Assembly (NCBI GenBank): GCA_020632415.1
Contig: JACKFO010000002.1
Span: 228,605 to 292,604, forward strand
Origin: Candidatus Nomurabacteria bacterium
Lineage (GTDB): Bacteria; Patescibacteriota; Patescibacteriia; UBA1558; GWA2-36-10
Length of the DNA stretch: 64,000 nt
Direction of reading: 5' to 3'
Translations under genes and position numbers: made by a program
Part shown: positions 2,183 to 62,931 of the stretch, piece after piece
How the letters are laid out: each line of letters begins with the position of its first letter
Numbering within the stretch: the first letter of the stretch is position 1
Notes under the pieces: generated by a model
Told to the model about the DNA's origin: nothing
The model's input: the letters and a program-made list of their open reading frames with translations, nothing else
The model's database searches: none

Positions 2183-3622
2183 ATGTTGAATGCTCAAAAA
2201 GTAACGGCAAATTCTTCATTTTTTTTAAGCGCTTTAGTGATTCAAAAAGTGCTTTCTTTTGTTTACTTTACGATTTTAGCGCGTGGTTTAGGAGTGGAGT
2301 TAACCGGCCGTTATTTTTTTGCTATTTCTTTTGCTACGATGTTTGCGGTTTTGATGGATCTTGGTTTAGCTCCGGTTTTGACCAGAGAGGTAGCTCGTCA
2401 ATCTGGCAATGAACAAAAATGGTTTCAGCAGATATTTTCTTTGAAATTATTGCTGACTTTTTTGAGTATTTTGATTTTGTTAAGTTTAAATTTTTTCTTA
2501 TTCTCTGGCGATCCGGTCCAAGCTTTGCTTTATTTGACAACTTTGATTGTTGCTATTGATAGTTTTACTTTACTTTTTTATGCCTATATTCGTGGTCAGC
2601 AAAATCTAAAATTTGAAGCCTTAGGCACAATCATCTTTCAATTAATTGTCATGTTACTTGGTTTAACGCTTTTGTTTTTTACCAAAAATTTAGTTTTAAT
2701 TATTAGTGTTTTATTTTTCGCTTCTTTGTTTAATTTGATTTTTTCCGGTATCGTTTTAAATCTAAAATTCAAAACCAAACTAAACTTGTTGTGGCAAAAA
2801 GATTTGTTACAAAAAATATTTTTAATTACCTGGCCTTTTGCTTTGTCGGCTATTTTTGCCAAAATTTATGCTTATCTTGATACTTTTTTATTAAAAATGT
2901 TTTTAGGTGACTCGGCGGTAGGTTTTTACAGCGTAGCTTATAAGATTACTTTTGCTTGGCAATTTATTCCACTTGGTTTGGTAGCTGCTCTTTATCCGGC
3001 TTTTTCACATTTTTTCTTACATGACAAAACAGAATTAAATAAAGTTTTTAATAAGGGGTTTTTATATTTAGCCTTAGTAGCCTTACCAATTTTATCAGGA
3101 ATTATTGTTTTGGCGCCGGAGATTATTTTAAAAGTTTATAAGCCGGAATTTGCAGCTGCAATTTTGCCTTTGCAAATTTTGATTGCCAGTTTAGCCTTTT
3201 TGTTTATGAATTTTGCTTTATCTAGTTTATTAAATTCTGCAAATTTACAAAAAACCAATACTCGTAATTTAGCCTTAACAATGTTTTTTAATTTGTTGGC
3301 TAATTTATTTTTGATTCCATTTTTAGGAGTTTTAGGTGCTGCTTTAGCTTCTAGTTTTAGCACTTTAGTTTTATTTTCTTTAAATCTAAAAGCTGCTTTA
3401 AAAATAGTAAAAATTCATCATCAAGCTTTGAGAAATATTTTCTTAGCTTTAATTGCTTCTATTTTGATGGCAGCTTTGGTTTATTTTAGTAAAATGATTA
3501 TTTGGTGGCCGCTGACAATTTTGCTTGGCGTAGTTTTTTATGCGAGCTTTTTATTGGCAAGTAAAATTTTAACTTGGCAAGAAATAAAATATTGGCGCCG
3601 ATCAATTTTTAAAAAAGATTAA
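2183..3622 (+). CDS. Polysaccharide/oligosaccharide flippase (Wzx-like, MOP superfamily polysaccharide biosynthesis protein)
   Basis: 479 aa, about 12-14 hydrophobic helices, Polysacc_synt-like N-terminal region; heads a glycosyltransferase cluster. Confidence 0.7.
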   Translation: MLNAQKVTANSSFFLSALVIQKVLSFVYFTILARGLGVELTGRYFFAISFATMFAVLMDLGLAPVLTREVARQSGNEQKWFQQIFSLKLLLTFLSILILLSLNFFLFSGDPVQALLYLTTLIVAIDSFTLLFYAYIRGQQNLKFEALGTIIFQLIVMLLGLTLLFFTKNLVLIISVLFFASLFNLIFSGIVLNLKFKTKLNLLWQKDLLQKIFLITWPFALSAIFAKIYAYLDTFLLKMFLGDSAVGFYSVAYKITFAWQFIPLGLVAALYPAFSHFFLHDKTELNKVFNKGFLYLALVALPILSGIIVLAPEIILKVYKPEFAAAILPLQILIASLAFLFMNFALSSLLNSANLQKTNTRNLALTMFFNLLANLFLIPFLGVLGAALASSFSTLVLFSLNLKAALKIVKIHHQALRNIFLALIASILMAALVYFSKMIIWWPLTILLGVVFYASFLLASKILTWQEIKYWRRSIFKKD

Positions 3623-4716
3623 TGAAAAAGACATTATTATTAACAAAAGAATATTTTCCTTTTTTTGGTGGCGTAGCAAATTATTGCCACGGTCTGTTTA
3701 AGTTTTTTAAGACAGAGGATTATTTGATCATTACTGATAATCCAAAGGTTAAAAGCAAAAATAATGTTATTAATTTAAAATTAGAAAATAAATTTTTAAA
3801 ACCAAGTTGGTTTTTTGCTTTTTTCAAAATAAAAAAAATAGTCAAAGAAAATAAGATTGAGCAAATTTTTACGCCAAACATTTTGCCCTTAGGAAGCATT
3901 GCTTATTTATTTAATAAATTTTGGCAAATTCCATATGTGATTTCTCTTCATGGTTTGGATATTAATTTAGCTTTGGAAAATAAATTTAAGTTGACTTATA
4001 AAATTTTAAAAAATTCTCGTCAGATTATTGTCAACAGTCAGGCGACTGCTAATATTGTCAATAAATTTCCAGAATTTAATAATAAAATTACCATTATTTA
4101 TCCTAGTTTAGATTTAGATTTTTCTAAGGTAGAGGAGAAGCATTTACAGTCTTTGAAAGAGTCGCTGAAGATCGAAGAGAAAACAAAAGTGTTTTTGAGC
4201 GTTGGACGTTTGAGTGTCCGCAAAGGACATGCCTGGGCAATTGAGGCCTTGTATAACTTAAATTTGACTGATTGGAAATATTTGATTGTTGGTAATGGTC
4301 CGGAAAAGAAAAATCTAGAACAATTGATTGCTAAGTATAAATTAGAGAAGCAGATTAAGATTTTAGAAAATATTGATTATTCTGATTTGATTTATTACTA
4401 TAAATTAGCTAAGATTTTCCTATTACCACAGAGACAGCTAGGTAATGACCTTGAGGGTTTTGGGATTGTTTTTTTGGAAGCAGCAGCAGCAAGATTAGCA
4501 ATTATTGCCGGTAACAATGGTGGGGTTTTGGAAATCTTAAGTGATCAAAAAAATGCCTTGTTGGTTAATAATATTGAAGAAATAGAACAAGCAATCAAGA
4601 GTTTGTTAAGTGATCAGGATTTAGAAAAGCTGATTAGAGAAAATGCTTATCTGCGCAGTCGAGATTTTGCCAGAGCTTCAGAGCAAAGCAATAAATTGAA
4701 ACTTATTTTATCATAA
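3622..4716 (+). CDS. Glycosyltransferase family 4 (GT-B, retaining)
   Basis: 364 aa; C-terminal E-X7-E motif EGFGIVFLEAAA; start overlaps upstream stop (TAATG). Confidence 0.75.
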   Translation: MKKTLLLTKEYFPFFGGVANYCHGLFKFFKTEDYLIITDNPKVKSKNNVINLKLENKFLKPSWFFAFFKIKKIVKENKIEQIFTPNILPLGSIAYLFNKFWQIPYVISLHGLDINLALENKFKLTYKILKNSRQIIVNSQATANIVNKFPEFNNKITIIYPSLDLDFSKVEEKHLQSLKESLKIEEKTKVFLSVGRLSVRKGHAWAIEALYNLNLTDWKYLIVGNGPEKKNLEQLIAKYKLEKQIKILENIDYSDLIYYYKLAKIFLLPQRQLGNDLEGFGIVFLEAAAARLAIIAGNNGGVLEILSDQKNALLVNNIEEIEQAIKSLLSDQDLEKLIRENAYLRSRDFARASEQSNKLKLILS

Positions 4717-6774: not shown

Positions 6775-7762
6775 AATACCTAAGGTGACAATTTGTTTGT
6801 TGACTTGGAATGGTCAAGATTATTTACCTTTTCAAATCAAGAGTTTAACCGAGCAGACTTTTCAGGATTGGCAGTTATTAGTATTGGATAATGCTTCTAC
6901 TGATAATTCAGTCGCCGTGATCAATGAATATTTTCCACCAGCCAAAGTGATCAGGCAAAAAGTGAATATTGGTTTTGCTAAGGCGAATAATCTTTTGCTC
7001 AAATGGTCTGATTCAAAGTATGTTTTATTTTTAAATCAAGATGTAATTTTAGAGCCTGATTATTTAGAAAAAACCGTAGCTTTTTTGGATCAGAATTTAA
7101 ACGTCGCTACGGTCTCTGGTAAACTTTTGCATTGGGACTTTGCGGCTTTGGCCAAGACAAAAATTATCGATTCTTTTGGTTTAAAGATAGACAGAAAAAG
7201 AGCGGTTAAAGACATTGATCAAGGAAAGCAAGATTATCAGCTCAAAGACATGGAGGTTTTTGGTTTGTCAGGAGCGCTTTTATTGGCTCGACGTGAAGCT
7301 TTGGAAACAATTAAGATTCCAAAAGCAACGGATGATTTTGAATATTTCGATGAGGATTTTTTTGCTTACAAAGAAGATGTTGATTTGGCTTGGCGCTTAC
7401 GACAGTCTGGTTGGGAAAATTGGTTATTAACTAGCACCAAGGCCTATCATCATCGTACAATTGGCGCTAAGAATTCACAAAAAACTGAGCGTCAAAAAAG
7501 AGGCTTTGTAAACAGACTATCTTATCGCAATCACTTGGCAACTCTTTATAAGAACTCTTTTGCTAAAAATATTTGGAAAGATTTTTTTCCGATCATTTGG
7601 TATGAGTTAAAAAAATTTACTTATTTTTTGATTCTAGAAAGAAAAACTCTTTCTGGTTTGTTTGAATTTTTTAAACTAAAAAAACGTTTTAAGAAAAAAA
7701 GGCAATTTATTGTTAGTCATCGTAAAATAAAAGCAGAGGATATTTATCATTGGTTCAATTAA
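6767..7762 (+). CDS. Glycosyltransferase family 2 (GT-A)
   Basis: 331 aa; VTICLLTWNGQDYL...VLDNASTDNS...NIGFAKANN...FLNQDV; 8-nt overlap with upstream gene. Confidence 0.75.
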   Translation: MNKIPKVTICLLTWNGQDYLPFQIKSLTEQTFQDWQLLVLDNASTDNSVAVINEYFPPAKVIRQKVNIGFAKANNLLLKWSDSKYVLFLNQDVILEPDYLEKTVAFLDQNLNVATVSGKLLHWDFAALAKTKIIDSFGLKIDRKRAVKDIDQGKQDYQLKDMEVFGLSGALLLARREALETIKIPKATDDFEYFDEDFFAYKEDVDLAWRLRQSGWENWLLTSTKAYHHRTIGAKNSQKTERQKRGFVNRLSYRNHLATLYKNSFAKNIWKDFFPIIWYELKKFTYFLILERKTLSGLFEFFKLKKRFKKKRQFIVSHRKIKAEDIYHWFN

Positions 7763-7763
7763 A

Positions 7764-8567
7764 ATGGATTTATCGATTATCATTTTAAATTATTTTAATA
7801 AAGACTTAATTAGAGAATTATTAAAAAATATCTCCACTTTAAATTTGCCCTATAATTATGAAATCATTGTTGTAGACAATGCTTCTTATGACGGCATTGC
7901 TGAGCTAGTCAAAAATCAAGATAAAGTAAGGTTTATTCAAAATAGTGTTAATAGCGGTTTTGCTGCTGGAAATAATTTAGGCATCAAACAAGCCAAAGGA
8001 AAATATATTTTGATTTGTAATCCAGACTTAGCATTTTTTTCTCCAGCTATTGAAATTTTATATCAATATCTAGAAGTTCATCCAGAAGTTGCTTTAGCTG
8101 GGCCACGCCTGATCAATCCTGATAAAACTTTGCAATATTCAGCAACTGCTTTTCCAGATTGGCGCTTACCTTTTTTTCGTCGAACTTTTTTAAGTAAAAC
8201 AAAAAATGGTTCAGCTTGGCTGAAAAAATATTTATTAGCTGATCATGATCATCAAAAAAATTTTTATGCTCCAGCTTTGTTTGGTGCTTGTTTGCTAGTT
8301 AGAGCATCTTCTTTATTTAAAGTTGGTTTGTTAGACGAAAGGTATTTTATGTACATGGAAGATTTGGATTGGTCGCGACGTTTTTGGGAAAATGGTTTTA
8401 AAGTTGCTTATGTTGGAGAAGCAGAGGTAATTCACTTACACAAAAGAGATTCTGCTCAAAGTCTATTAAAAATATTTACCAAAAAAACTGCCCGAGCACA
8501 TATCTTTAGTTTTATTAAATATTTATGGAAATTTAGAGGGAAAAGTCAGCCAAAAACGGATTTTTAG
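7764..8567 (+). CDS. Glycosyltransferase family 2 (GT-A)
   Basis: 267 aa; LSIIILNYFN...VVDNASYDG...NSGFAAGNNLGI...CNPDL; paralogous to the two preceding GT2 genes. Confidence 0.75.
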   Translation: MDLSIIILNYFNKDLIRELLKNISTLNLPYNYEIIVVDNASYDGIAELVKNQDKVRFIQNSVNSGFAAGNNLGIKQAKGKYILICNPDLAFFSPAIEILYQYLEVHPEVALAGPRLINPDKTLQYSATAFPDWRLPFFRRTFLSKTKNGSAWLKKYLLADHDHQKNFYAPALFGACLLVRASSLFKVGLLDERYFMYMEDLDWSRRFWENGFKVAYVGEAEVIHLHKRDSAQSLLKIFTKKTARAHIFSFIKYLWKFRGKSQPKTDF

Positions 8568-8604
8568 TTTTCTTGCTTATTTTAGCTATTTTTACTAAAA
8601 TTAT

Positions 8605-8612
8605 TGTATAAT
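8605..8612 (+). promoter_or_regulatory. Extended -10 promoter (TGTATAAT) upstream of lysS
   Basis: ttatTGTATAATttttt 20 nt upstream of the ATG at 8632. Confidence 0.4.
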
Positions 8613-56221: not shown

Positions 56222-57037
56222 CTATTTTTTTTCAAGCTTTGACTGCTTGACTGCCAAAAATTGAATTGCTGCCCCTAAATCCGGTAAAATTGGGCTCAAG
56301 AATTTTCTTTCCCAATTTAAGTAAACTTTGTAAATTTTTAAAAACCACTTTGCTTCTAGACGTGGAAAATAATCATAAGTATAAAATTCTTTTATTTTAA
56401 AACCAACATTTTTTAAGCTTTGACGCATTTTTTTTGGAAAAAAAACTTCAGCATCAGGTTCAATCATTTCTTGATGAACAGTTGCCTGGGGAACAAAAAT
56501 ATTTAAAGCACGAATTAATAAACGCACAGCAAGCCAAGAATAAAAAAATGGATTGTGCCATTTATGATAATTAGCATTTGGTTCACCTAAAATTACAAAA
56601 TGTCCTTCTGGTTTTAAGACTCTAAAAACTTCTCGAAAAGTTTGTTCCATAGCGAAAAAATGATGTAAGGAACCATTGATCACTACTAGGTCAAAAAAAT
56701 TGTCCTGATAAGGCAAAGCAACAGATTCTCCTTGAGTAAAATTGATGTTTGGGTATTTATTTTTGGCAATTTTTAAAACCTCTTCTGACAAATCTACGCC
56801 GTAAACATTTTCTGCAATAGTCAAAAGTTTAGCACTCAAGCGACCAGTGCCACAGGCAATATCTAAACACTTCTCTGCTTTTTTGGAGCCAATGAATTTT
56901 TGTAAATTAGAAAAATTCCAAGTATCAACAATTTTCGCTGACTCGGTCTCTGTATGCCAAGAATCATACTTTTCAGCGGTCGAATTATAATATTCTAACT
57001 GAACTTTCTTTTTTTCTTCGTAAATTTGTTCATTCAT
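56222..57037 (-). CDS. Class I SAM-dependent methyltransferase
   Basis: 271 aa; motif I LDIACGTGRLSAKL, motif II/III region; substrate unknown. Confidence 0.7.
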   Translation of the reverse strand: MNEQIYEEKKKVQLEYYNSTAEKYDSWHTETESAKIVDTWNFSNLQKFIGSKKAEKCLDIACGTGRLSAKLLTIAENVYGVDLSEEVLKIAKNKYPNINFTQGESVALPYQDNFFDLVVINGSLHHFFAMEQTFREVFRVLKPEGHFVILGEPNANYHKWHNPFFYSWLAVRLLIRALNIFVPQATVHQEMIEPDAEVFFPKKMRQSLKNVGFKIKEFYTYDYFPRLEAKWFLKIYKVYLNWERKFLSPILPDLGAAIQFLAVKQSKLEKK

Positions 57038-57125: not shown

Positions 57126-57698
57126 TTATTCAAAATAAATTGGAATTTCTAAAGCATCGTCATGCTCCGGTAATCCTGAAGGATTATCTTTTTGAAAAAT
57201 CAAAGCTCCGTTGTTTTTGTAATCTGGTTTGCTAAATTCTAAGTTTACAGTAAAAGGCACAAAATCTTCGGTCATCCAATCCCCCTTAGCCTGAGCAATT
57301 CCTTGAGCAATGATCAGACCGTCCCAATTAACTAAACTTACCGGAAAAGAGCTTTCAAAAAACCAAGTTCCTCTGGCTTGACCAGAAATAGTAAGCGGAC
57401 TTGTAATATAATCATCAGCATGAACAGAGTCTAAACGAATTAAATTAAATTTTTCTTGCTCTGCTTTATTTAAAATTTGATCCTTTAAAATTTCCACAAA
57501 AGTTTCATTGTTTGCTCGACACTGACGTGGATGAGATTCCATTATCGGAAAACCCGCTGCTTCACATTCAATAAAATTAGCAATCTTTTTTTCTTCTGTT
57601 TCAGATTTTTTTAACAATAAACCACCAACAATCAATAATAAAACTGCTATTTCTAAAGCGTAATAAATATATTTTTGATTCCCTGATCTAAACATCAT
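57126..57698 (-). CDS. Hypothetical membrane-anchored/secreted protein
   Basis: 190 aa; N-terminal TM anchor; followed by minus-strand terminator hairpin at about 57075-57100. Confidence 0.45.
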   Translation of the reverse strand: MMFRSGNQKYIYYALEIAVLLLIVGGLLLKKSETEEKKIANFIECEAAGFPIMESHPRQCRANNETFVEILKDQILNKAEQEKFNLIRLDSVHADDYITSPLTISGQARGTWFFESSFPVSLVNWDGLIIAQGIAQAKGDWMTEDFVPFTVNLEFSKPDYKNNGALIFQKDNPSGLPEHDDALEIPIYFE

Positions 57699-57773
57699 AA
57701 AATTACAAGTTCAATGATTATTGACTAAATTAATCGCTTATCTTATACTATCTTCATCATTTTACAATAATAT

Positions 57774-57848
57774 TCGGGGATCGTCTAATTGGTAGGACGA
57801 CTGGTTCTGGTCCAGTTAATCGGGGTTCAAATCCCTGTCCCCGAGCCA
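57774..57848 (+). tRNA. tRNA-Gln (anticodon CUG)
   Basis: 75 nt cloverleaf folded by hand: acceptor TCGGGGA/TCCCCGA (U1:A72), D-arm GTCT/GGAC, anticodon arm ACTGG-TTCTGGT-CCAGT, T-arm CGGGG-TTCAAAT-CCCTG, G73, encoded CCA. Confidence 0.8.
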
Positions 57849-57913
57849 AGCGAATGAAGTGAGCGTAGGTTCGGGATTGATAAAATTGAGTCGGAGACGA
57901 AAATCCTAAGATG

Positions 57914-57956
57914 CTGGACAATGGTCCAGCGCCCCGAGCCAAGCGAATGAAGTGAG
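57914..57956 (+). repeat. Degenerate duplicate of the tRNA-Gln 3' half (anticodon-arm-like hairpin plus 25-nt exact repeat of tRNA 3' end and trailer)
   Basis: CCCCGAGCCAAGCGAATGAAGTGAG at 57839-57863 and 57932-57956; preceded by CTGGACAATGGTCCAG, which resembles the anticodon arm. Confidence 0.6.
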
Positions 57957-57958
57957 TG

Positions 57959-57979
57959 CAGCTGAAAAGCTGTTTTTTT
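57959..57979 (+). terminator. Rho-independent terminator after tRNA region
   Basis: CAGCTG-aaaa-GCTG followed by TTTTTTT. Confidence 0.55.
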
Positions 57980-57980
57980 A

Positions 57981-58007
57981 AATAAAAAAGCCCGACCGAA
58001 GTCAGGC
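57981..58007 (-). terminator. Rho-independent terminator (minus strand) for the 58002-58238 gene
   Basis: Minus-strand reading: GCCTGAC-ttcg-GTCGGGC followed by TTTTTTATTT. Confidence 0.6.
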
Positions 58008-58238
58008 TGTTGGTGAAACTGGATCTTTTTCTACTTCAGAAAGCGTAATCATATAGCTTTCGCTTCCAACGATCTTGTGCCACTGACCAAGAAAATGAAT
58101 GATCCGCACGCCTTTGTTTTCTGCGATACTAATGATGATCATCTCAGAGGTAATGCTGTAAGAGAACACGTGAACGTTCTCTGTGTGGCCAGCTCGATCA
58201 GTCAGAAGAAGCTCTGTGCCCTTAGAAAAAATCTTCAT
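58002..58238 (-). CDS. Hypothetical small protein (78 aa)
   Basis: ORF with good downstream terminator; no motifs recognised. Confidence 0.4.
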   Translation of the reverse strand: MKIFSKGTELLLTDRAGHTENVHVFSYSITSEMIIISIAENKGVRIIHFLGQWHKIVGSESYMITLSEVEKDPVSPTA

Positions 58239-58277: not shown

Positions 58278-59780
58278 TTATAGCACTTCTCCCCCAAAGA
58301 CGTCAACAGCTTCATTAACACCTTTTTCTGAGCCACCACGAAATTCCTGATGATGAGCCTGATAATCATCATCTATTTCAAAAGTTATTTTAATTTTTTT
58401 ATTTAAAATCCGAGCTATTTTTTCTTCAATCTCTTGTTTCATTTCTGGCTTACTGAGCTGTTCAATGTGAAAAGAAAATTCACAACCAATCACAATCTCT
58501 TGTTCGCCAGCGTTCAGAGGATGCGCATTTTTGATCAAACCAGAGATAGAATGATTTAGTGGTTTTAATAAATCAACCAAATGATCCCAATTATTTTGTA
58601 ATGATTTCCAAAGATCATTCTTCTCTATTTCTATTTTATTATTTGAAATATTTGCTGGCGTTTGATGTTCTATTTTTAATTCCGAAGTAGATGCTAATAA
58701 AAATTCTACACAGGCTAGCTCCAATGGCAATTGATCAATAATGCTTTGTTGCTTGTTACTAGTTTTATTTAATAAAATATTTAGCAAGCGAGATAAGTCA
58801 GCAAGTTGAAAACCATCGGCTTGTTTTTTTATTTCTTCTTTTAAATGATCGTCTAGATTCAAAGAAAAATCAGAACCGATAATTTTATAAAGCATTGTTT
58901 GACGAACATAGTCTAATAAATCATTAAGTAAAGTATCAACATCCACACCTTCGTCAATTAATTTAGCGATTTGATTTAATGCCGCAGCTAGATTGTTTAA
59001 ACGTAAAGCTTCTAACAAAATATCTATTTCCTGCCAATTATTACGTGGCAAAACCAAAGAAACTAAATCATCAGTCACTTTGCCACTGGATAAAGAAATA
59101 ATCTGTCCCAAAAGTGACTCTGCATCACGCAAACAACCTTCTGAGCGACGAGCAATTTGCGCTAAAACACTATCCTCTATTTGAATTTTTTCCCATTCAA
59201 TGATCTCTGTTAATCTTTTGATCACTTCGGCTTGAGGGATTTTTTTGAAATCAAAACGCTGACAGCGAGAAATAATTGTTTCAGGAACTTTGTGAATTTC
59301 TGTTGTTGCTAAAATAAAAATAACTTGTTTTGGTGGTTCTTCCAAAGTTTTGAGCAAAGCATTAAAAGCTGACTTAGAAAGCATGTGCACTTCATCAATC
59401 ACGAAAACTTTATAACCTTTTTGATTAAAAGGCGGAGTTTGAGCGTTAGCAATAATGTTTTCCCTGACATTATCTACGCCGGTATGTGAAGCGGCATCAA
59501 TTTCAATCACATCCAAAGACTGATTGTTCAAATTACTTTGGCAAGCCTGACAAGCATTACAAGGCTCAGCTTCATTTTCTTTGCGATTTAGACAGTTTAA
59601 AGAGCGCGCAAAAAGACGGGCCAATGTTGTTTTGCCCGTTCCTCTTGGTCCTACAAATAGGTAAGCATGCGCAAGCATGCCAGAAATTATTTCATTTTCC
59701 AGAGTAACTTTGATTGGTCTTTGACCAACAACTTCTTTGAAAACTTTTGGTCGATATTTTCTGTACAATACCTCTGACAT
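58278..59780 (-). CDS. dnaX: DNA polymerase III subunit gamma/tau
   Basis: 500 aa; Walker A GPRGTGKTT, Zn module CLNRKENEAEPCNACQAC, DEVHML box, SRC motif. Confidence 0.9.
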   Translation of the reverse strand: MSEVLYRKYRPKVFKEVVGQRPIKVTLENEIISGMLAHAYLFVGPRGTGKTTLARLFARSLNCLNRKENEAEPCNACQACQSNLNNQSLDVIEIDAASHTGVDNVRENIIANAQTPPFNQKGYKVFVIDEVHMLSKSAFNALLKTLEEPPKQVIFILATTEIHKVPETIISRCQRFDFKKIPQAEVIKRLTEIIEWEKIQIEDSVLAQIARRSEGCLRDAESLLGQIISLSSGKVTDDLVSLVLPRNNWQEIDILLEALRLNNLAAALNQIAKLIDEGVDVDTLLNDLLDYVRQTMLYKIIGSDFSLNLDDHLKEEIKKQADGFQLADLSRLLNILLNKTSNKQQSIIDQLPLELACVEFLLASTSELKIEHQTPANISNNKIEIEKNDLWKSLQNNWDHLVDLLKPLNHSISGLIKNAHPLNAGEQEIVIGCEFSFHIEQLSKPEMKQEIEEKIARILNKKIKITFEIDDDYQAHHQEFRGGSEKGVNEAVDVFGGEVL

Positions 59781-60489: not shown

Positions 60490-62931
60490 TTAGACTTTTA
60501 AACGCCTTACCACTTCTTCTTCGATTAACTTCCTATCTCGTCCATATTTTAAGGCTGACAATTCTTTGATTGCCTGGGCTAATTCAAAATGACCTTTTTC
60601 TGGTTTGATTGGTTGAAAATTAAAAGCTGGAGTGACTGTATTGTCAATCAATAATTTTACATAACAAGTATATTTTGGCATATTGATCAAATCATATTCT
60701 GAGACTACTGGAGCCATTTGTTTGGCAATAATCTCTGAATCTTCTACGCCAATTCGGAAAGAAACCAAAGTTCCAACATTACCAAAAATAGCATCTCTGG
60801 TTCTAGTATCTCCGCTTTTAACTAACTGAGCAATAAACTGATGAGCTAAAATTAAATTTAATTTATATTTTCTGGCTTCTGACAAAATAACCGAAACTGT
60901 ATCAGTAATAAAATTTTGAAACTCATCAATGTATAGATAAAAGTCCTTTCTGTCTTCTTCGGCAGTGTCTACCCGACTCATGGCAGCAAATAATAATTTT
61001 CCAATCACCACCATTCCTAGTAAACTACTATTTGTTTCACCGATCTTACCTTTGGATAGATTCAATAAAACAATTTTATTTGAATCCATCGCCTCTCGGA
61101 AATTAAAAGCACTTTTACTTTGAGCGATAATCGGTCGAATCAAATCATTGGAAATAAACGGAGTTAATTTACTAGTAATATAAGGAACCATGTTAGCTAA
61201 GGCTGCATCGCCGCCAGCTTTTTGCGCCTCTTTTTCCCAAAAATCTTTGACAAAAACATTTTTAACAGTCTCTAATTTTTTCTTTCGATACTCAGCGTCT
61301 GCTAAAATTTTTGGAATTTCTAATAGCGTCGCTCCGCTTTCTTTATCATCCATAACCAGCAACATGGCATTGCGCATGTATTGTTCAAACATCGGACCAC
61401 CGGTAGCTTTTAAGTCGTATAGTTTATCAAAAATTGCAATCATTTCGTTGATCACAAAAGTTTTTTGCTCTTCCGTTTCATATTCCAACATGTTCATTCC
61501 TAATGGTCGTTGGGAATTTGCCGGATCAAACAAAATCACATCTTCTGCTCTTTCTTTTGGAATTTGAGTCAAAATAACCTCTACCAAATCACCATGTGGA
61601 TCAACTACGCAGACTCCCTTGCCAGCTTTAATGTCCTGAATAATTAAACTTTCCTGAAAAACAGATTTTCCGGTTCCAGTCTGACCAATGACATACATAT
61701 GGCGGCGGCGATCCTCTGACTTGATCCTAACTAGGGTCTCTCGACCACGATAAGAGCTTTTGCCGAGTATTAAGCCATCTTGGGGCATATTGCTTGGTGG
61801 TGGGGCCTTAACAGCCTCCAACCAAGCAATGTTTGGAGTTTCGGTGGTCGGTAAAGGCAAATGAATGACCGAAACCATTTCTTCTGAATTCAAAAGAAAA
61901 CTATTTTTATCAATAAATTGTCGGAAAATAAACTGATCAATCAATTTGTCAGATTTTTTAGGAAGCAAAGCTTCGAAGCTATTACCAAATTCATAAATAT
62001 TGTATTGCGCATAACTATTCAAAATATCTTCCAAAACTGCCTCTGATCTTTCTTTGCTATTGCTAGAAACAACCACTCTTAGATTGACATCTAAGGCTGG
62101 TTTAGAGTTTTTATCTTCTAAAAGCTTACTAATTTCCTGTTCTTTAGCAGAACTTTGATGTTTATTTTCTAATGGAAATTGTTGATGATCTTTATTTTTG
62201 TCTGGACTAGCAAAATTAAAAAAACTTCCTAAAAATGAGAAAAACCCAAAAATTGATTTTCCACTACCCGCTTTTGAAACCGCAGTTTGCAAACTCTCAC
62301 CATCTTGCATGTTTCTAACAATTTTCCTTGCTCTGCTATGCCAAGCCTTTGGCGCGGATTTAAAAACATACTGAATGGAAGCTGACTCATGTTCGTTCAG
62401 CTTACTCAAAGCATTGGTAATACTCTCCAAAGGATCATTTTCAAAAACATGGTAAGTTTTGATCGGTAAAGTAGAATCTTTTTTTAATTTCAAAGCACCT
62501 GCTTTAATCACACTGTTAGCTTCAAAAATATTGTAATCAGAAATTTCTTCAAAATAAACTTTTGGATAAACTGATTGAAATTGTTGTAAAAAAAATTCTT
62601 TTAATTTTTTAGGGACGGCCACGTAAAAATAAATAATCCCCTTAAAGGCTACCATTTCTAAAGAAAAAATTCTTTCTTTTTTCAAAGATTTTTCAGATTT
62701 CAAACCAGCTAGAGCAGTAAAAAGATTTTCAATTCGACCCAAAGCGCCATTAATATAATCTTTATTTAATTCATCCTGATCTTTTTTGGTATATCTAGGA
62801 ACTTTGAGCAAAAGCATTTCTAGTTCAGGATTTTTATTAATATTTTTTTTATACCAAAAAAATAAAATTACTAAGGCAATGGCCAGTAATAAAAAAATGC
62901 TGATTAAAATAATAGCTTCTAGCGAAATCAT
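60490..62931 (-). CDS. Fused membrane-anchored FtsK-HerA superfamily ATPase (TraD/VirD4/HerA-like); single-gene equivalent of the 50784-52295 plus 49030-50778 pair
   Basis: 813 aa; N-terminal TM; middle region homologous to the 503-aa protein; C-terminal ATPase with GQTGTGKS, DPHGD, YLYIDEFQNF, ARKYKLNLILAHQ. Confidence 0.6.
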   Translation of the reverse strand: MISLEAIILISIFLLLAIALVILFFWYKKNINKNPELEMLLLKVPRYTKKDQDELNKDYINGALGRIENLFTALAGLKSEKSLKKERIFSLEMVAFKGIIYFYVAVPKKLKEFFLQQFQSVYPKVYFEEISDYNIFEANSVIKAGALKLKKDSTLPIKTYHVFENDPLESITNALSKLNEHESASIQYVFKSAPKAWHSRARKIVRNMQDGESLQTAVSKAGSGKSIFGFFSFLGSFFNFASPDKNKDHQQFPLENKHQSSAKEQEISKLLEDKNSKPALDVNLRVVVSSNSKERSEAVLEDILNSYAQYNIYEFGNSFEALLPKKSDKLIDQFIFRQFIDKNSFLLNSEEMVSVIHLPLPTTETPNIAWLEAVKAPPPSNMPQDGLILGKSSYRGRETLVRIKSEDRRRHMYVIGQTGTGKSVFQESLIIQDIKAGKGVCVVDPHGDLVEVILTQIPKERAEDVILFDPANSQRPLGMNMLEYETEEQKTFVINEMIAIFDKLYDLKATGGPMFEQYMRNAMLLVMDDKESGATLLEIPKILADAEYRKKKLETVKNVFVKDFWEKEAQKAGGDAALANMVPYITSKLTPFISNDLIRPIIAQSKSAFNFREAMDSNKIVLLNLSKGKIGETNSSLLGMVVIGKLLFAAMSRVDTAEEDRKDFYLYIDEFQNFITDTVSVILSEARKYKLNLILAHQFIAQLVKSGDTRTRDAIFGNVGTLVSFRIGVEDSEIIAKQMAPVVSEYDLINMPKYTCYVKLLIDNTVTPAFNFQPIKPEKGHFELAQAIKELSALKYGRDRKLIEEEVVRRLKV

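Follow-up and report, generated by a model that had tools for sequence, protein, structure and literature searches.

A conserved structured RNA linked to tRNA-Gln in Parcubacteria

The tRNA-Gln(CUG) gene in the analyzed 64-kb stretch of DNA (here called the window) is followed by a previously uncatalogued conserved structured RNA of Parcubacteria that is linked to tRNA-Gln. This element is probably neither a scar nor a neutral relic but an RNA module that is under selection and co-transcribed with the tRNA. With somewhat more reserve, we favor reading it as a structured RNA module of the tRNA-Gln transcription unit in Komeilibacteria and their relatives, of a kind comparable to RttR of Escherichia coli.

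The probable tRNA-Gln transcription unit and its neighborhood

The tRNA gene occupies positions 57774-57848 of the plus strand and is 75 nt long, with a U1:A72 pair, G73, and an encoded CCA. The original prediction of a well-formed tRNA-Gln with these features was upheld by ARAGORN, which finds no other tRNA in the 64-kb window, by the Rfam tRNA model (RF00005; 58.5 bits, against a gathering threshold of 29), and by the sequence itself. The D loop of this tRNA contains an additional U (AAUUGGUA); the other CCA-encoding tRNA-Gln genes examined, from relatives and from metagenome loci, are 74 nt long and have the D loop AAUGGUA where the sequence was printed.

The exact 25-nt repeat that had been reported, CCCCGAGCCAAGCGAATGAAGTGAG, is present on the plus strand at 57839-57863 and at 57932-57956, and its second copy begins, as had been claimed, 83 nt past the end of the tRNA. 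Copy 1 is composed of the 3' strand of the tRNA acceptor, the CCA, and nucleotides 1 to 15 of the linker that follows. Copy 2 is composed of the 3' strand of the element (CCCCGAGCCA) and 15 nt of a second linker, and it contains the 3' strand of the closing helix P1 described in the next section (57933-57940, plus strand), followed by an A at 57941. The two copies are separated by 68 nt and start 93 nt apart, and at 93% identity the repeat can be extended to 30 nt. The check for a dispersed repeat that had been proposed alongside the prediction came out in its favor: there are only two copies of the 25-mer in the 64-kb window, with none further at up to 3 mismatches, and no match was found in shuffled windows (0/100). 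With two copies of the 25-mer and one of the element in 64 kb, the feature does not have the character of a dispersed repeat of the REP or MITE type.

Judging from its sequence, the window comes from a Komeilibacteria-like Parcubacterium. The nearest dnaX genes in reference genomes are those of MAGs of Candidatus Komeilibacteria and other Parcubacteria (loci L001 to L011; 52 to 77% amino acid identity), and tRNA-Gln(CUG) adjoins dnaX in all of them. In the window, the tRNA is flanked on one side by genes for a Gmad2-domain membrane protein (57126-57698) and a SAM methyltransferase (56222-57037) and on the other by a 78-aa ORF (58002-58238) and dnaX (58278-59780), all four on the minus strand. 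Synteny is kept on both sides of the tRNA, the order in L001 being dnaX, an 80-aa ORF, the tRNA, a Gmad2-like gene, and the methyltransferase. A TraG/VirD4-like ATPase is encoded at 60490-62931, and L091 has an ORF of the same size (822 aa) beside dnaX, a match in size and position only.

The tRNA-Gln and the element form a cassette of approximately 260 bp (57700-58010 in the window versus 5900-6260 in L001) with a promoter, putative in the case of the window, and a terminator of its own. This cassette is inverted in the window, L004, and L011 with respect to L001 and L005 to L009, and the order and orientation of the flanking dnaX, 78/80-aa ORF, Gmad2-like gene, and methyltransferase are constant despite the inversion. 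In L004, an identical 20-nt hairpin (TCCCCGGCGGATGCCGGGGA), located at ~7510-7535 and again at ~8590-8610, flanks an ORF for a membrane protein of ~300 aa that is situated between tRNA-Gln and dnaX.

A promoter-like sequence, TTGACT-17 nt-TATACT, lies 25 nt upstream of the tRNA (57721-57749, plus strand) and scores 10/12 in a consensus scan. Sites of the form TTGAC(T/A)...TA(T/A)AAT are also found ahead of the tRNA in relatives, and the one in the window presumably functions as the promoter of the unit. The only plus-strand terminator found has its stem at 57958-57973, followed by a T run, and is located after the element; this intrinsic terminator (GCAGCUGAAAAGCUGU, then a U run) spans 57958-57980, and the terminator scan revealed none between the tRNA and the element. 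In relatives that have the element, the first T run usually falls past the last copy of the tRNA 3' end, and in relatives that lack it, a T run is found 15 to 28 nt past the tRNA. The element is therefore probably part of the tRNA 3' trailer. Positions 57958-58008 of the window present back-to-back terminators for the convergent tRNA-element unit on the plus strand and 78-aa ORF on the minus strand, and the terminator stems CAGCY...RGCUG and AGCCCGAC...GUCGGGCU recur in L001.

Structure and conservation of the element

One unit of the element measures approximately 90 nt and is composed, in order after the CCA, of a linker hairpin (L), the 5' strand of the closing helix (P1), an A-rich junction, a middle hairpin (M), the motif CCUAAGAU, a hairpin (H), and a copy of the tRNA 3' end; the coordinates that follow are all on the plus strand. 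Hairpin L (AGCGAAUGAAGUGAGCG, 57849-57865) is conserved after the CCA in relatives, and its consensus, AGCGAAYGAAGUGAGCG, gives a GAA loop closed by two inner pairs, with a tandem G.A/A.G between these and two outer pairs. In the window, these pairs are G2-C16, C3-G15, the tandem G.A/A.G, A6-U12, and U7.G11, again with a GAA loop. The 5' strand of P1 (GGUUCGGG, 57868-57875) has a core, GGYUC, that pairs with GAGCC, and it is lengthened to GGCUCGGG in elements of type 1. Hairpin M, which in the window reads UUGAGUC-GGA-GACGAAA with a tandem G.A (57886-57902), differs by subtype: it is CCGAGUC-GAA-GACGAGG with a tandem G.A in type 1, Watson-Crick paired in type 2 (e.g., CUCCGCC/GCGGAG), and absent in type 3. 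The junction CCUAAGAU (57905-57912) corresponds to (nearly) invariant columns in an alignment of 16 sequences. It is followed by H, a hairpin with a 7-bp stem (GCUGGAC-AAUG-GUCCAGC, 57913-57930) whose consensus is GCUGNNC-AAUR-GNNCAGC and whose AAUR loop is invariant. The 3' end of the element is a G and then CCCCGAGCC-A, which equals the 3' strand of the tRNA-Gln acceptor together with G73 and CCA. This CGCCCCGAGCCA end is invariant across nearly all homologues, and its GAGCC is predicted to form P1 with GGYUC, closing a three-way junction.

Two details of this architecture can be added. Hairpin L and the type-1 form of M have a motif in common that consists of two Watson-Crick pairs, a tandem sheared-type G.A/A.G, two to three pairs, and a GAA loop, and this motif (57849-57865 and 57886-57902 in the window) may be a shared signal for protein binding or cleavage. 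In L084 (minus strand, ~7930-7963), a perfect 20-nt palindromic hairpin (CCTGCCTGCCGGCAGGCAGG) is inserted within the 3' strand of the element, between CCCC and GAGCCA; the insertion keeps the GGCUC/GAGCC pairing, and a complete second unit follows it.

The distribution of the element was assessed in the relatives L001 to L011, which were picked via dnaX, independently of the element, and in which the 220 nt downstream of each tRNA-Gln were read. The element was found downstream of tRNA-Gln(CUG) in four of these eleven (L001, L005, L007, and L011). The acceptor stem of tRNA-Gln itself departs from that of the window in some lineages, the types UUCGGGA and UCGGAGA being seen in L003 and L009. 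Together with the window, this makes 5 of 12 dnaX-sampled loci, and the element is therefore dispensable or frequently lost. In the four relatives that have it, identity to the window is 71 to 83% for the element and 85 to 97% for its core (consensus YAAGAUGCUGNNCAAURGNNCAGCGCCCCGAGCCA), versus approximately 50% for the 70-nt flanks on each side, which is the background of the alignment method. DnaX of the genomes that share the interval of roughly 80 to 95 nt between the repeats is only 63 to 77% identical.

A metagenome scan with a degenerate pattern made from hairpin H returned 22 hits, a selection that inflates the apparent conservation of the core in this set. All but one of them (21/22) follow a tRNA-Gln at a distance of no more than ~200 nt or sit at a contig end that cuts the sequence there, the exception (L097) being a chance match in coding sequence. 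The anticodon at these 21 loci is UUG in 11 and CUG in 8, with no call in the 2 (L092 and L102) where the contig end removes or truncates the tRNA. On one 847-kb contig, both tRNA-Gln genes carry the element (L082, UUG, and L095, CUG).

Covariance model R1, derived from 16 distinct sequences, finds a single significant copy in the window, the unit body at 57863-57941 (plus strand; 85 bits, E = 2.8e-19). It gave no significant match in the seven relatives without the element and none away from tRNA-Gln across 41 sources. No Rfam family covers the element at E <= 10 in 57500-58200, where only the tRNA was matched, and only the tRNA was matched at the gathering score in nine related loci; weak Rfam matches (STnc370, mascRNA, sR36, and others) fell far under their thresholds. 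A literature search on a tRNA-Gln-linked motif in Parcubacteria or Patescibacteria retrieved nothing relevant.

The second segment in the window folds at -31 kcal/mol (z = -4.6 versus shuffled sequence). RNAalifold recovered P1, a middle hairpin (in a pairing register that differs from M as defined above), and H from the type-1 set, and H from the remaining sequences. Among the eight type-1 sequences, 94% of cells are paired, versus 24 to 39% in slid controls; six pairs have changed on both sides, two each in L, M, and H, and none of the shuffles attained the observed covariation score (0/500). Compensatory changes affect two of the four pairs of L and two pairs of M, the latter from C-G to U-A, and across the 16 sequences pair 59:68 of H is found as five pair types and pair 60:67 as three. 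Three of the four helices (L, M, and H) are backed by compensatory changes. In the same 16 sequences, H and the P1 core, the latter at all five positions, are 100% paired. The only variation in P1 is C or U opposite G, its changes being one-sided (wobble) because the 3' strand CCCCGAGCCA never varies. All wobbles are G.U on the tRNA strand, and on the opposite strand they would be A-C mismatches; G.U pairs thus arise only in the tRNA orientation, and the RNA is therefore read in the direction of the tRNA.

Other pairings compete with this fold. In type-1 elements, a local hairpin formed by GGCUCGGG and UCCGAGUC, which excludes both P1 and M, is equally well paired (95%), and the ensemble of folds predicted in silico for the whole transcript is mixed. 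The GGYUC strand has identical targets in the 3' end of its own element and in the 3' end of the upstream tRNA, and in models of the fold it could equally pair with the latter; the two partners are indistinguishable because CCCCGAGCCA never varies.

Several other identities for parts of the element were considered and rejected. A hairpin before the second repeat copy is indeed present (CTGGACAATGGTCCAG, 57914-57929), as the original prediction stated, and the likeness to the anticodon arm that was attributed to it is specific to the window: the variable pairs of H in relatives (GA/UC, UG/CG, AG/CU, and GG/UC) do not match the anticodon stems of the neighboring tRNAs, and homology of H with this arm was discarded. 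A small ORF starting at the AUG in UAAGAUG (MLDNGPAPRAKRMK*) has no Shine-Dalgarno sequence, its frame ends arbitrarily in relatives, and its residue changes are non-conservative exactly where the hairpin covaries. As T-box-like or specifier features, the element offers only CAA in the H loop and a GGCUC whose complement is in the tRNA 3' end, and what is found downstream is a terminator and no gene. A riboswitch or T-box leader has no Rfam match here, and the element mostly precedes a terminator and not a gene; a glutamine riboswitch likewise has no Rfam match. The linker motif GAAYNNARTGAR, considered as a dispersed motif, shows no enrichment (4 occurrences in the window versus 2.3 expected).

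Tandem units and the origin of the repeat

The second linker copy (AGCGAAUGAAGUGAGUGCAG, 57942-57961, plus strand), a part of the 30-nt repeat (93% identity), merges into the terminator stem. In the window, the repeat consists of the CCA end and 15 nt of linker, after which the terminator stem begins, and it is thus the start of a truncated next unit. Some loci hold two to three units, each terminated by a tRNA 3' end. Two extra copies of this end are present in L007, L085, L087, L088, L091, L095, and L096, L084 has a complete second unit, and in L082 the 45 nt repeated after the element extend from the CCA end through the linker into P1; the additional units in some arrays are of heterogeneous sequence. 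The length of the identity varies by locus (10, 25, or 45 nt), which fits a turnover of tandem units by unequal recombination or slippage and not a fixed att core. The 25-nt repeat is the boundary of such a unit, and its two copies have probably stayed identical, or become so again recently, through unequal recombination or slippage between units. The tandem duplication that the original prediction had offered as an alternative comes close to the truth as far as the tandem arrangement goes; what it took for a duplicated tRNA half is the boundary of units that end in the tRNA-Gln 3' strand and CCA.

The reading to which the original prediction gave most weight, that the repeats are attL and attR of an element that targeted tRNA-Gln and was almost entirely deleted, leaving a minimal cis-mobilizable remnant, now appears very unlikely. 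It draws on the direct repetition of the tRNA 3' end (25 nt exact in the window, and 10 to 11 nt shared by tRNA end and element end in relatives), a trait of att sites in tRNA genes generally, on the presence at several loci of two to three repeats with heterogeneous sequence between them, as would result from serial integrations, and on a patchy presence among relatives. Short repeats of a tRNA 3' end are, however, no evidence of integrase activity by themselves, and the site differs from att sites in having no integrase, no cargo, and no occupied/empty polymorphism. No integrase or mobile-element gene is found among the neighbors in the window, and those at L082, L091, and L099 are ordinary cellular genes with none of a mobile-element type; synteny is conserved on both flanks. 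The comparison with relatives that had been suggested for finding an occupied site yielded no kb-scale insert among ~30 loci, in which the interval is either absent or the conserved module of ~80 to 180 nt. That interval holds a conserved structured RNA in which base pairs change in the compensatory manner of RNA and G.U pairs are specific to one strand, and the length of the identity differs between loci, unlike that of a fixed att core. The core pattern has no match in viral contigs (IMG/VR), where the tRNA 3'-end pattern gave one chance match in a GC-rich coding region, and blastn against phage (INPHARED) and plasmid (PLSDB) collections gave none.

A history without integration, in which tRNA-Gln was duplicated in tandem long ago and a second copy without a separate function is decaying as a pseudo-tRNA, would account for the acceptor 3' strand and the part of the 5' strand (UCGGG) that the element has in common with the tRNA, for the cloverleaf-like fold of the window copy, and for the lack of the element in 7 of the 11 relatives. 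Such a neutral relic is nonetheless unlikely: it would not be expected to keep a 35-nt core at 85 to 97% identity between flanks at ~50%, nor to acquire compensatory changes in three helices. The second segment, which had been put forward as a possible pseudo-tRNA, is called neither by ARAGORN nor by the Rfam tRNA model, it has no T arm and no anticodon loop, and H does not follow the anticodon stem. We consider it quite improbable that the element is instead a small non-autonomous mobile DNA that inserts at the 3' end of tRNA-Gln with CCCCGAGCCA as its target-site duplication. Within one genome, the element accompanies both tRNA-Gln genes, and its copies there (L082 and L095) resemble each other more than copies from different genomes do; this would agree with such mobility, as would the patchy distribution, the tandem arrays, and the hairpins close to both ends. 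The L082 and L095 copies could, however, equally stem from duplication or conversion of the whole unit of tRNA and element, because the two tRNAs are themselves nearly identical. Moreover, no candidate transposase is associated, every copy is tied to tRNA-Gln, the duplicated length varies, and L006, which has no element, keeps the start of the linker and GGCUC, more in the manner of a deletion derivative than of an empty site.

Comparison with known systems and putative processing

The closest known analogue of the element is the tyrT 178-nt repeat/RttR of E. coli (RtT in Rfam), which is not homologous to it. In the E. coli genome (NC_000913), tyrV is followed by three units of ~178 nt, each of which has the final 19 nt of tRNA-Tyr (AATCCTTCCCCCACCACCA) at its end and is followed by the common trailer TCACTTTCAAAAG, and rttR is annotated from just past the tRNA, within the tyrT repeats. 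As in that system, the element described here immediately follows a tRNA gene and shares its strand; its tandem units each finish with a repeated tRNA 3' end to which a common trailer is joined, and the final one is incomplete. In contrast, the two have no sequence or structure homology, with no RtT match at E <= 10 in 57500-58200 and none at the gathering score in nine related loci. The unit is ~93 nt long here versus 178 nt, the stretch of tRNA copied is 10 to 11 nt versus 19 nt, and no small ORF comparable to tpr is embedded in the element. Whereas RttR is linked to tRNA-Tyr, the element is found with tRNA-Gln, in Patescibacteria, and its copied 3' end is predicted to be paired into the closing helix. 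The mode of action of RttR is still described as unknown (bioRxiv 10.1101/2024.07.17.603846).

By analogy with this system, processing of the tRNA 3' end may release a discrete RNA from the module and thereby free tRNA-Gln from the terminator, a proposal that we make tentatively. The module would be co-transcribed with the tRNA from the site at 57721-57749 and would end at 57958-57980. The enzymes that act on the tRNA 3' end would also cut at the end of each unit, as would be expected because the units share the acceptor strand and CCA (and, in this window, the linker). Such a cut would free an RNA of ~90 nt and part the tRNA from the terminator, as in E. coli RttR.

Two other types of RNA invite comparison. 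The 3'ETS-leuZ of E. coli, the 3' external transcribed spacer of a tRNA operon, was reportedly described by Lalaouna et al. in 2015 as a sponge of sRNAs. It would resemble the element in being a functional RNA from the 3' trailer of a tRNA transcript, and it differs in having no copy of the tRNA 3' end and in acting by pairing with sRNAs. In tRNA-like processing handles, such as mascRNA at the 3' end of MALAT1, and in the tRNA punctuation model, a fold that mimics a tRNA directs the cuts of tRNA processing, and this would be one possible route for the element to part tRNA-Gln from the terminator. The element differs from them in that the Rfam mascRNA model matched only the T arm of the real tRNA, and weakly (16.8 bits), and in that its subtypes 2 and 3 mimic just 2 bp of the acceptor stem. 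In addition, the GGC that precedes position 1 is paired with GCC of the element 3' end, which is not the arrangement expected of an efficient RNase P substrate.

The exclusive link to tRNA-Gln may reflect an origin by local duplication or a Gln-specific role that involves the U1-A72/G73 acceptor end. A more specific reading, to which we give little credence, is that of an undescribed Patescibacteria family of tRNA-Gln-specific RNAs that present or sequester the tRNA-Gln 3' end (A72-G73-C74-C75) and act in Gln-tRNA biogenesis or protein binding. Such RNAs could switch between P1 plus M and the local hairpin, which would leave CCCCGAGCCA free, and their role would be in Gln-tRNA biogenesis, for example, in the control of tRNA-Gln 3' maturation. 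Alternatively, they could bind a protein that recognizes U1-A72/G73 (e.g., GatCAB, GluRS, or GlnRS) or a toxin with cleavage activity toward the acceptor stem.

If the element is the RNA module of the tRNA-Gln transcription unit that we favor, it would add a new family of conserved non-coding RNA to the Candidate Phyla Radiation, where, to our knowledge, very few RNAs have been characterized and the RNA-processing machinery is reduced. It would also be the second independent case, besides tyrT/RttR, of trailer units that end in the 3' end of their own tRNA, and it would suggest a general route to small RNAs, or to tRNAs freed from their terminators, by way of the tRNA 3'-end machinery.

Three further observations concern the trailers and contigs of individual loci. 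In L006, which is without the element, the linker motif AACGAACAAAG still opens the trailer (7607-7640), and GGCUC and a U run come next. This GGCUC could form a terminator stem with the GAGCC end of the tRNA itself, and judging by its sequence the trailer appears to derive from the element by deletion. Another recurrent trailer module, YTCGACTC...GCTCRYGGTCTRCGACC, is found after the CCA in L004 (8640-8685), L086/L099, L088, L094, and L096, at times in place of the H-type element and at times after it. The metagenome contig of L085, which carries the element, also has on its minus strand two tandem c-di-GMP-II riboswitch aptamers (3568-3651 and 3721-3804; 64 and 65.5 bits).
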